A DNA stretch of 51,869 nt from a virus. Positions 23,261-24,461 of this stretch are shown piece after piece (the first letter of the stretch is position 1; every line of letters begins with the position of its first letter). A program made the translations under genes and the position numbers. The stretch is from positions 1 to 51,869 of the IMG/VR virus record IMGVR_UViG_3300020577_002236, one strand, 5' to 3'. Under the pieces are notes generated by a model. It was not told where the DNA came from. It saw only the letters and a program-made list of their open reading frames with translations, and searched no databases.

Positions 23261-23595
23261 AAGCTCCTAATGTCCAGCTGACCATTGACTTGAATAGTGT
23301 AAGCTACGTTAGCTTCTACTACAAAAATCAATTCGGCCATGTCCGCAGAAAGATACCTCGCTCTCTTACTGTGCAAGGTGTGCTCATCACTAACCCGAAA
23401 GACTATGCATTTCCTTACATCTTAGAGCACCCTAAAGAGACCATCGAAGAACGCATCAAGCGGAAAGAGATGGCTGACATCTGGACACCTATTTGCAAGT
23501 ATCATTTCCGTCAGCAGAAATCATTTCACTTTGAAGGAGAAGAAGCGAAGAAGAGACGGGATGCTTACAACAAACATATCTATAACAAACAATGA
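23257..23595 (+). CDS. Hypothetical protein (about 112 aa)
   Basis: The likely GTG start at 23257 overlaps the ligase stop (GTGA), with GGAG upstream. The track start 23239 is also possible. Confidence 0.5.
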   Translation: MKAPNVQLTIDLNSVSYVSFYYKNQFGHVRRKIPRSLTVQGVLITNPKDYAFPYILEHPKETIEERIKRKEMADIWTPICKYHFRQQKSFHFEGEEAKKRRDAYNKHIYNKQ

Positions 23596-24461
23596 AACTA
23601 TCACAACCACCCGATGAGAATCGATTAAGATTAATCCTAGCTAATGGGCCAGAGTTCTACTCTATGGTTCAGCAGATGATTGATGAATTCAAACTCCCCT
23701 ATACTATTGAGAATGGTGTCCTCAAAGATGCACTCAAAGGTACTGACTTACATCTTCGGAAGTTCATCACTGTTGACCCAGCTATGATGAAGAAGAAAGA
23801 AGATGTCCCTCGACTAGCTAAGTGTGACTACCCTATCCTCATCCATGGTGAGACAGGGACAGGGAAAGAGATCATTGCTAGAGCTATGATTGGTGACCGA
23901 GAAGGGAACTCTGTGTTCATCAACTGTGCTGGGTTGCCAGAGACTTTGATGGAGTCAGAACTCTTTGGATATGTGAAGGGTGCTTTCACTGGTGCCCTTG
24001 GTGATAGGCAAGGTATGTTGGCTAGGGCCTCATCGGGTCGTAGTGGGCAGGGGTTGGCATTCTTAGATGAAGTTAGTTGGTTAACCTTAGGGATGCAGGC
24101 TAAACTTCTGCGTGCTATCCAAGAGAAGAAAGTCCGAAGGGTAGGTGCGTTCGAAGAAGAAGACATTGATTGCAAGATAGTGTGTGCTAGCAATAAGAAC
24201 TTGAAAGCATTAGTAGCACAAGGCTTGTTCTTGCCTGACCTCTATGCACGTATCAGCACCTTTGAGTTTCACATCTCCCCCATACGTGAGAGGCAGTGTG
24301 ACATCGAACCTATCATAAAGAACATGAAGATGGGTGAGCAGTTCCTTGATGTCCTGCACAAGTCAGGTCGACATGTAGCACAACTCGACACAACTTACAA
24401 TGTTCGCAGCTTGGAGCAGTATGTTAGGCGCTTCGAGGTGCTAGGTAAAATTGTACTGTGA
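23592..24461 (+). CDS. sigma54-dependent transcriptional activator, AAA+ core only (no receiver/sensor, no HTH)
   Basis: Walker A 'GETGTGKE', 'ESELFGY.KGAFTGA' with an intact GAFTGA loop (nt 23979-23996), Walker B 'LAFLDEV', 'LLRAIQEKKVRRVGAFEE.DIDCKIVCASN', 'DLYARISTFEFHISPIRER' and 'NVRSLEQ'. The protein is 289 aa in total. Confidence 0.85.
   Translation: MKLSQPPDENRLRLILANGPEFYSMVQQMIDEFKLPYTIENGVLKDALKGTDLHLRKFITVDPAMMKKKEDVPRLAKCDYPILIHGETGTGKEIIARAMIGDREGNSVFINCAGLPETLMESELFGYVKGAFTGALGDRQGMLARASSGRSGQGLAFLDEVSWLTLGMQAKLLRAIQEKKVRRVGAFEEEDIDCKIVCASNKNLKALVAQGLFLPDLYARISTFEFHISPIRERQCDIEPIIKNMKMGEQFLDVLHKSGRHVAQLDTTYNVRSLEQYVRRFEVLGKIVL

Follow-up and report, generated by a model that had tools for sequence, protein, structure and literature searches.

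A putative phage-encoded minimal sigma-54 activator and its sigma-54-type promoters in a group of uncultured tailed phages

Sigma-54 promoters are silent until an AAA+ activator, known as a bacterial enhancer-binding protein (bEBP), spends ATP, which makes them a nearly leak-free switch. Several accepted bEBPs are reduced in architecture: the C-terminal helix-turn-helix (HTH) is missing from FleT and from FlgR of Helicobacter pylori and CtcC of Chlamydia (the last two placed in group 5 in Table 1 of PMC7175178), and the N-terminal sensing domain is missing from PspF, HrpR/S and FleT (PMC7175178). According to the same review, of 2020, FleT of Rhodobacter sphaeroides is the only known bEBP without both the regulatory and the DNA-binding domain. 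The AAA+ fragment PspF(1-275) of Escherichia coli is the form used in ATPase and open-complex assays (PMC3419264). The present work concerns an open reading frame (ORF) of 289 amino acids (aa) located at 23592..24461 (+) in a stretch of viral DNA of 51,869 nucleotides (nt), IMG/VR record IMGVR_UViG_3300020577_002236, referred to here as the window; a preliminary description made from the sequence alone had proposed that it encodes a minimal sigma-54 activator. The transcription programmes of other phages found in a literature search comprise replacement or appropriation of sigma-70-family factors, anti-sigma factors and phage RNA polymerases, the late system of T4 being treated in a review (PMC2988020). 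The preliminary description had held that a phage-borne sigma-54 activator was not yet characterised by experiment, and in agreement with it no paper on a phage-encoded bEBP or on a sigma-54-based phage programme was found by full-text search, where subscription journals are thinly covered and absence is unproven. A phage gene programme run through its own sigma-54 activator and canonical sigma-54 promoters would be one not found described in the literature.

The favoured reading, to which a probability of about 70% is assigned, is that the 289-aa protein is a phage activator driving the host sigma-54 RNA polymerase on phage promoters. It is a reading of sequences and models, and the observations under it are the domain identity of the protein, its minimal architecture, the phage context of its gene, and the enrichment, placement, orientation and conservation of the promoters.

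The ORF starts with ATG and its motifs were verified by codon position. The protein matches Pfam PF00158 (Sigma54_activat) with an E value of 3.5e-48 and 163.9 bits against a cut-off of 20.2, over aa 60-225 and profile positions 3-166 of 168, and PF14532 with an E value of 1.7e-15; the sigma-54-interaction AAA+ module first read in the letters is thus confirmed, and the GAFTGA loop is intact at exactly the position reported for it, nt 23979-23996. The glutamate-switch Asn is N111 and the sensor I region is CASN at aa 198-201. Walker A, N111, GAFTGA, Walker B, D216 and R220, and the sensor II residue R272 are invariant over 28 homologues with 50-74% identity to the window protein. In a PDB sequence search (phmmer) the matches were NtrC4, NtrC1, FleQ, NifA, ZraR, FlrC and PspF with E values from 1e-41 to 1e-31. 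The AlphaFold model, built with the 28 homologues as input, reached a pLDDT (predicted local distance difference test) of 93 and a pTM (predicted template-modelling score) of 0.79, and superposes on the cores of FleQ, NtrC1 and PspF. Foldseek identified the bEBP cores of FleQ, FlrC, NtrC1, ZraR and PspF at E 1e-23 to 1e-18, and the top 50 PDB fold matches were all bEBP-family AAA+ cores, including those of NifA, LuxO, DmpR and NtrX, with a TM (template-modelling) score of about 0.8 normalised to the target.

NCBIfam returned 26 matches to named bEBPs (RtcR, NorR, NifA, NtrC and PspF among them), all restricted to the central domain and under their curated cut-offs. The best scores were those of RtcR (196.7 bits, cut-off 650) and NorR (195 bits, cut-off 476), and the FlgR model covers only the central region of the protein, far under its cut-off. 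Because all these matches fall far under the curated cut-offs, none of the named cellular bEBPs is an orthologue of the protein. The features of bEBPs (AAA+ clade 6) present in it are a PF00158 score above gathering, GAFTGA, Walker A and B, the Asn switch, the sensor II Arg, the fold and cognate promoters; those absent are the trans-acting Arg finger, the C-terminal Fis-type HTH and the N-terminal sensing domain. Going by its sequence, the protein fits best as a divergent variant of the bEBP family that is borne by a phage.

No receiver, GAF, PAS, V4R, HTH_8 or other DNA-binding domain was identified in the protein by Pfam down to E<=1, so that the reported absence of HTH_8 and Response_reg holds. 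In the model the last helix, that of sensor II, spans aa 271-284 and the chain stops five residues later, leaving no Fis-type HTH, also as described. The wider statement that the protein has no sensory or DNA-binding domain is correct for recognisable domains and has to be amended for aa 1-59, which form a conserved folded domain and not a mere leader. This segment is conserved over the 28 aligned homologues (consensus KLPYxIENGxLKDxLxGTELxLKKFITVDP) and is folded in the full-length model as helix-helix-beta hairpin-helix with pLDDT 79-94. It has no Pfam match; modelled alone it reached pLDDT 72 and no PDB fold match. A phmmer search against 1.84 billion representative proteins found the domain confined to the activator family. 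Residues 1-57 comprise 8 acidic and 8 basic residues as counted from the translation, a balance that argues weakly against DNA binding.

The activator family comprises at least 120 clusters at 49-95% identity in the protein search, many of them on contigs 47-55 kb long. Of the 120 clusters listed, nearly all have lengths of 271-322 aa, the exceptions being a 170-aa fragment and a 396-aa protein, and none has Pfam domains other than Sigma54_activat and generic AAA+ domains overlapping it. Relatives were found in 193 IMG/VR stretches, where the order helicase-ligase-activator-nuclease is conserved. The 50,697 GenBank phage records gave no megablast match to the activator gene or to 25 kb of the window, and no family member in an isolate phage. 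The BFVD viral structure library held nothing nearer than generic AAA+ proteins at E 1e-9 and no bEBP-like protein. Among the matches listed from 185,579 species genomes there were only cellular bEBPs of many phyla (32-46% identity) and no close homologue. Matches of up to 45% identity obtained with tblastn in records labelled as phage were rejected as relatives, many being annotated as zraR, glnG, atoC or prpR or lying in large bacterial contigs, that is, in cellular DNA. A single-sequence scan of IMG/VR gave no relatives of the window terminase, and its homologues were found instead by tblastn in the loci of the activator family. Apart from this family, the unrelated human-gut phage MT121960.1 (L164, 5770-6684) encodes a 304-aa bEBP-like protein between primase and helicase genes, with GAFTGA and FRSDLYYR present and an altered P-loop (GETGTDKE); no strict sigma-54 motif was found within the 12 kb examined of that phage. 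A short phage-borne bEBP may be a theme that recurs in unrelated phages.

Sigma-54 sites were searched with a strict motif, TGGCAY-N6-TGCW (TGGCAYNNNNNNTGCW), with a relaxed form of it and with a position weight matrix (PWM) built solely from related loci. The window contains 7 strict sites against 0.59 expected, a number reached by none of 100 shuffles. Four of the 7 are intergenic, at 5346(-), 11696(-), 13777(+) and 17557(+), and the relaxed and PWM scans add the intergenic sites 11943(+, weak), 14973(+) and 24481(+). In total the PWM scores 12 sites in the window, where the 7 intergenic ones all point toward the next gene. The promoter at 24481 heads an operon of exonuclease, deoxynucleoside monophosphate (dNMP) kinase, DNA polymerase and primase genes, and the one at 17557 an operon running through helicase and ligase to the activator gene itself. 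The tandem pair at 50470..50515 lies inside a 57-aa ORF (50386-50559, -), 90-120 nt upstream of gene 49547..50380; these are candidate internal late promoters, or else chance matches in what is probably a small gene. The 160-nt segments upstream of the independent promoters of the window show no common k-mer or inverted repeat, the sole shared upstream k-mers coming from two divergent promoters that use the same DNA.

The same motif is abundant in the relatives, and this comparison yields the strongest of the new evidence. In 81 related loci (1.18 Mb) there are 154 strict sites against 11.3 +/- 3.1 expected, a density of 0.13 per kb compared with 0.019 per kb around cellular bEBP genes, and the motif co-occurs with the activator gene in 74 of the 81. 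Positions that the search left unconstrained also match the sigma-54 consensus (T before TGGCA, G after TGGCAY, and T/C/T before TGC), the consensus of the phage -24/-12 promoters being tTGGCAYGrnnyTTGCT. Among 139 unique sites, 101 (73%) fall between genes even though coding sequence makes up about 90% of the DNA, 122 sit on the gene strand, and the next start codon lies at a median of 71 nt. When all dyads of two 4-mers and a gap were compared between gene-oriented intergenic DNA and coding DNA, GGCA-N7-TGCT, TGGC-N8-TGCT and TTGG-N9-TGCT, registers of a single motif, ranked first, with 83 occurrences against 4.4 expected. Three positions are conserved. In 65 of 79 loci a strict motif comes after the activator gene, the median gap from its stop codon being 30 nt, with 20 nt in the window; a motif lies 74-248 nt upstream of the homologue of the 188-aa gene in all 8 loci having that gene; and in L031 and L047 the terminase homologue (tblastn) has a minus-strand motif upstream of it, matching 11696(-) of the window. 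The sequence data support the view that canonical sigma-54 promoters occupy conserved positions in this phage and its relatives. In a distant sub-group (L043, L048, L056 and L057, at about 10690-10730) the direct repeat TTTAGAAGATAG occurs twice before the post-activator promoter, overlapping the stop codon; this repeat, which the window does not have, may be a regulatory site.

The DNA carrying the gene is a complete tailed-phage (Caudoviricetes) genome. Because of an exact terminal overlap of 77 nt (window 1-77 = 51793-51869) it is complete, circular or terminally redundant, with 51,792 bp. Two gene arms diverge from a roughly 1-kb control region lying at 11.6-12.6 kb. The plus arm (12.6-35.3 kb) comprises small early genes and those of a superfamily 2 helicase, DNA ligase, the activator, a PD-(D/E)XK nuclease, dNMP kinase, an AAA_24 ATPase, a family A polymerase split by an intein and a homing-endonuclease gene, and a DUF3987 primase-like protein. 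The minus arm, one continuous virion arm of about 28 kb, begins at 11.6 kb, crosses the junction and reaches as far as 35.3 kb; it opens with a 163-aa gene and the large terminase and closes with a 2501-aa protein. The terminase has 25-27% identity over about 70% of its length to the large subunits of Akkermansia and Clostridium phages (tblastn, E down to 7e-30), and a tail-fibre-like protein was identified by weak PHROG matches. Otherwise the virion arm gave almost no Pfam or PHROG matches, and portal and capsid proteins were not found in it. Pfam detected no integrase, RNA polymerase or Sigma54 domain in ORFs of at least 150 aa, in line with the earlier remark that the genome has no RNA polymerase of its own, and no RpoN-box occurs in any reading frame of the window. 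The coordinates of the activator, its motifs, the sigma-54-type sites and the terminase are collected in Table 1.

Table 1. Features of the activator gene, sigma-54-type sites and terminase gene in the window
Feature	Positions	Strand	Evidence or remarks
Minimal sigma-54 activator gene (bEBP-like AAA+ protein), predicted	23592..24461	+	ORF listing; PF00158; PDB sequence and fold matches to FleQ, NtrC1, NtrC4 and PspF
N-terminal family-specific domain, aa 1-59	23592..23768	+	Conservation; model
Sigma-54 interaction AAA+ core, aa 60-225	23769..24266	+	Pfam match
Walker A GETGTGKE, aa 86-93	23847..23870	+	Read in sequence; family-invariant
GAFTGA L1 loop, aa 130-135, sigma-54-contacting signature	23979..23996	+	G[AS]FTGA invariant in 28 homologues
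Walker B FLDE, aa 157-160	24060..24071	+	D159 and E160 invariant
RxDxxxR motif, reading LPDLYAR, aa 214-220	24231..24251	+	D216 and R220 retained; alignments to NtrC4 and FleQ
Sensor II NVR, aa 270-272	24399..24407	+	Family-invariant
Sigma-54-type promoter TGGCACGATTATAGCT	24481..24496	+	PWM 19.3; 20 nt past activator stop
Sigma-54-type promoter TGGCATGAGTTATGCT	17557..17572	+	PWM 21.9, best; 84 nt upstream of 188-aa gene
Sigma-54-like site CGGCACAAAACTTGCT, intergenic	14973..14988	+	PWM 14.7; 100 nt upstream of gene 15088..15522
Sigma-54-type site TGGCATCTTTAATGCT, intergenic	13777..13792	+	PWM 14.3; 106 nt upstream of 64-aa ORF
Sigma-54-type promoter TGGCACAGAAGATGCT, head of virion arm	11696..11711	-	PWM 17.4; 110 nt upstream of 163-aa gene preceding terminase
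Sigma-54-type promoter TGGCATACTTTCTGCT, intergenic	5346..5361	-	PWM 19.0; 167 nt upstream of 431-aa virion-arm gene 3884..5179
Weak sigma-54-like site TGGCATAATTCTTGTT, divergent control region; doubtful	11943..11958	+	PWM 13.8; GT for -12 GC
Two tandem sigma-54-like motifs, TGGCATACCTGCTGCT and TGGCATCAAAAATGCT, 30 nt apart	50470..50515	-	PWM 17.7 and 17.1
Large terminase subunit, marking the minus arm as packaging/virion module	8985..10886	-	tblastn

The ATPase site of the window protein departs from that of most of its family. The trans-acting site of bEBPs is the RxDxxxR motif (R162, D164 and R168 in PspF), where R162 of PspF was established as a genuine Arg finger by Joly et al. (PMC3419264). 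In the window protein it reads L214-P-D216-L-Y-A-R220, the stretch F-L-P-D-L-Y-A-R aligning with F-R-E-D-L-Y-Y-R of NtrC4 and FleQ. The preliminary description, which had every hallmark present and placed the finger in RVG...IVCASN, was mistaken on this point, the finger belonging to RxDxxxR, where its Arg is replaced by L214. Over 129 family members the position is occupied by Arg in 110, Lys in 2, Leu in 15 and Met in 1, and the Leu set comprises the 90% cluster of the window itself and P0002-P0006, which are 69-74% identical to the window protein. Co-fixed with R214L are E163W, G162S, P165T and A145R (window 24078-24086 and 24024-24026); E163 is invariant in all 112 members with Arg or Lys, and DEIGELP becomes DEVSWLT in the Leu sub-clade, where all other catalytic motifs are invariant. 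Comparison of these sequences suggests an ATPase site that was probably rebuilt and compensated rather than decayed. Since the finger position is Leu, canonical ATPase competence of the window protein is not to be assumed.

In the mechanism proposed, early transcription, starting probably at promoters of the sigma-70 type near 12.1 kb in the AT-rich control region, would reach the activator gene, while host sigma-54 holoenzyme would sit in silent closed complexes on the phage -24/-12 promoters until remodelled by the AAA+ activator. As it accumulates, the activator would, to judge from its homologues, assemble into a ring whose GAFTGA loops engage sigma-54, and would convert closed into open complexes at the expense of ATP. 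Activation would fire the promoter 20 nt downstream of the activator gene, leading to the replication genes, the promoter ahead of the operon of the activator itself, giving positive feedback, and the promoters of the terminase and virion arm. With no C-terminal HTH in the protein and no upstream element common to the promoters of the window, action from solution is the most likely mode, in which case timing would be set by the concentration of the activator and not by a signal. We infer an activator that is constitutively active and enhancer-independent. In its widest form the proposal is that a clade of uncultured tailed phages, each of about 50 kb, has its replication and virion genes transcribed through host sigma-54 RNA polymerase, switched by an enhancer-free activator reduced to the AAA+ core, which would be the first viral hijack of sigma-54 and the smallest natural sigma-54 switch, and that the sub-clade of the window rebuilt its ATPase site without the Arg finger (R214L, E163W and a gained R145); this whole is regarded as somewhat more probable than its negation.

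Several points weigh against this proposal. The presence of sigma-54 in the host is an assumption, and the matches listed from the scan of 185,579 species genomes gave no host clue. The finger position is Leu214 in the window protein and in the rest of its sub-clade (at least 69% identity), and the PspF equivalent, R162A, has ATPase activity reduced to almost nothing and gives no open complex. The right-hand virion arm (35-51 kb) is without a strong intergenic sigma-54 site, its motifs lying inside ORFs only, and in 14 of 79 loci, mostly the most distant, there is no strict motif downstream of the activator. An early promoter for the activator gene was not found: the sigma-70 consensus occurs 32 times against 28 expected and is not enriched, its matches clustering at 12.08-12.18 kb in an AT-rich block. 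A scan of the window for the Bacteroidota-type pattern TTTG...TAnnTTTG gave misplaced sites only, and the AGCTAGAAT repeat is not enriched. Finally, the N-terminal domain could be an unrecognised DNA-binding or regulatory module.

The lack of the finger bears on a reading in which the window protein is catalytically impaired and not self-sufficient, either forming mixed rings with a host bEBP that lends the Arg and a DNA-binding domain, as in FleT/FleQ and HrpR/HrpS, or modulating or blocking host sigma-54 transcription while host bEBPs fire the phage promoters. L214 stands at the place of PspF R162, whose R162A variant forms constitutive hexamers with ATPase down to a kcat of 0.18, almost none, and neither remodelling nor open complex, R162K staying active (PMC3419264). 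Trans-defective R162 variants of PspF complement cis-defective subunits within mixed oligomers (PMC3419264), and FleT, the sole known bEBP lacking both flanking domains, is an architectural precedent (PMC7175178). However, the other ATPase motifs are invariant in the Leu sub-clade across about 30% divergence, which points to selection on nucleotide chemistry; E163W, G162S, P165T and the gained R145 look compensatory and not like decay; the window retains a full set of sigma-54 promoters; and the Arg of 110 of the 129 members implies that the family overall needs no partner. This reading as a whole is considered rather unlikely. An enhancer-dependent activator, in which aa 1-59 would hold the ring close to the phage promoters by binding either DNA or a host protein that sits on DNA, is likewise unlikely, and by a shade the less probable of the two. 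The conserved, confidently folded and family-specific character of aa 1-59 would suit it, as would a helix-helix-hairpin layout compatible with a small nucleic-acid-binding fold and the direct repeats just upstream of the post-activator promoter in some distant relatives (TTTAGAAGATAG twice in L043), but aa 1-59 match no Pfam or PDB fold, their even charge is unlike that of typical DNA-binding domains, and the independent promoters of the window have no upstream k-mer or inverted repeat in common.

Two further explanations set aside sigma-54 or the phage. The protein might be a bEBP-like ATPase not acting through sigma-54, either a sigma-70-dependent regulator like NtrX, TyrR or VpsR or an AAA+ remodeller of replication, the TGGCA...TGC motif being read by another factor. 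Its gene does sit among replication genes and has a weak PHROG match to clamp-loader proteins (3.1e-06), far weaker than that to PF00158, and VpsR-type homologues working with sigma-70 exist (PMC6158489). VpsR is without the conserved residues needed for sigma-54 action (PMC6158489), whereas the present family has an invariant GAFTGA; across the phage family the motif that dominates between genes fits the sigma-54 consensus in spacing and flanks and accompanies the gene in 74 of the 81 loci, which makes this explanation very improbable. That the contig is a cellular or plasmid fragment with an ordinary truncated cellular bEBP is hardly credible. The scarcity of Pfam and PHROG matches among virion-arm proteins would be expected of such a fragment, but the 51.8-kb assembly is circular and encodes a large terminase, a tail-fibre-like protein, the 2501-aa protein, an intein-bearing polymerase and homing endonucleases, the relatives in IMG/VR are viral contigs that match it in size and synteny, and no close homologue is among the matches listed from the species genomes. 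That the phage protein activates host sigma-54 RNA polymerase is accordingly the reading retained.

Other features of the genome were observed in passing. The 2501-aa protein (35259-42764, -) has a Gly/Ala-rich N-terminal segment and HExxH at aa 407-411, with no DxDGD, no T7-type motifs and no sequence match in PDB, Pfam or PHROG; because the catalytic motifs of both classes of RNA polymerase are missing, it is not a recognisable RNA polymerase, and it is possibly an internal protein of the virion that is ejected. The family A DNA polymerase is split into pieces over 29946-33917: an 819-aa ORF comprises a weak 3'-5' exonuclease match and an HNH-bearing intein, a free-standing HNH-AP2 endonuclease gene (32383..32889) comes next, and the C-terminal polymerase part has its own ORF (32886..33917). 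That endonuclease gene is one of three paralogous HNH-AP2 homing-endonuclease genes in the replication arm (18251-18745, 28276-28743 and 32383-32889).

In the divergent control region, 12040-12170 is an extremely AT-rich block made up of TATATAAC-type repeats and palindromes that overlap. It is a candidate for an origin of replication or a cluster of early promoters, and a sigma-70-like TATACA-16-TATAAT lies at 12083-12110. It is followed before the first plus-arm gene by an ORF-free segment of about 400 nt (12170-12585) with higher G+C and a tRNA D-arm-like string, GTGGTGTAGTGGTAGAAT, where ARAGORN and Rfam gave nothing and the fold z-score is an unremarkable -1.5; no tRNA genes were found in the window. 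Between the post-activator promoter and the next gene there is an unusually long untranslated leader (24497-24851, 356 nt), comparable to the gap in relative L001, with no Rfam match and a fold z-score of -1.6, also unremarkable.

Matches of the polymerase, primase and terminase are 20-27% identical and scattered over unrelated hosts, and the helicase and exonuclease have no phage match and give no host clue. A Shine-Dalgarno-like motif precedes only 4 of 41 genes, and the 20 nt upstream of the starts contain 41% A and 12% G. Leaders that are Shine-Dalgarno-poor, A-rich and G-poor fit Bacteroidota. This composition suggests a host with Shine-Dalgarno-independent initiation, such as Bacteroidota, and is to be taken as a lead rather than a result. 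Sigma-54 regulons exist in Bacteroidota (PMC12316311). If the proposal is correct, a large group of environmental phages leaves the sigma factor alone and supplies the motor protein only, and an activator without a DNA-binding domain would be expected to fire the host sigma-54 regulon too, thereby reprogramming the host. A 289-aa protein and a 16-nt promoter would then constitute a compact orthogonal on-switch for synthetic biology (compare PMC12096077), and the sub-clade without the Arg finger, with its co-varying substitutions, is a natural experiment on the construction of the bEBP ATPase site.

Among known systems, FleT resembles the window protein in being reduced to the sigma-54-interaction AAA+ core. 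FleT acts as a hetero-oligomer with the DNA-binding bEBP FleQ. It differs in being cellular and flagellar, whereas the window protein is phage-encoded, has a 59-residue domain of its own, belongs to a family of at least 120 clusters, carries Leu at the finger position and has the phage genome as its apparent regulon. PspF likewise has no N-terminal sensory domain and shares the fold and motifs (Foldseek about 1e-18, PDB phmmer 1e-31), but full-length PspF has a C-terminal HTH, is restrained by PspA and uses the R162 finger where the window protein has LxDxxxR. FlgR and CtcC are, like the window protein, without a C-terminal HTH, and they reportedly act without an enhancer, a finding attributed to Brahmachary et al. 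in 2004. Both keep a phosphorylatable receiver under a sensor kinase, whereas the phage protein has no receiver; they are for this reason not the precedent that the preliminary description took them for, and FleT is the closest known architecture (PMC7175178). The systems of T4 (gp55/gp33/gp45), N4 (the single-stranded DNA-binding protein) and SPO1 (gp28) are alike in that an earlier-made phage product switches the host core polymerase to middle or late promoters. Those products replace or decorate sigma-70-family factors, whereas here no sigma factor is encoded, and the phage of the window appears to use the host sigma-54, supplying only the ATP-driven activator that this factor requires.

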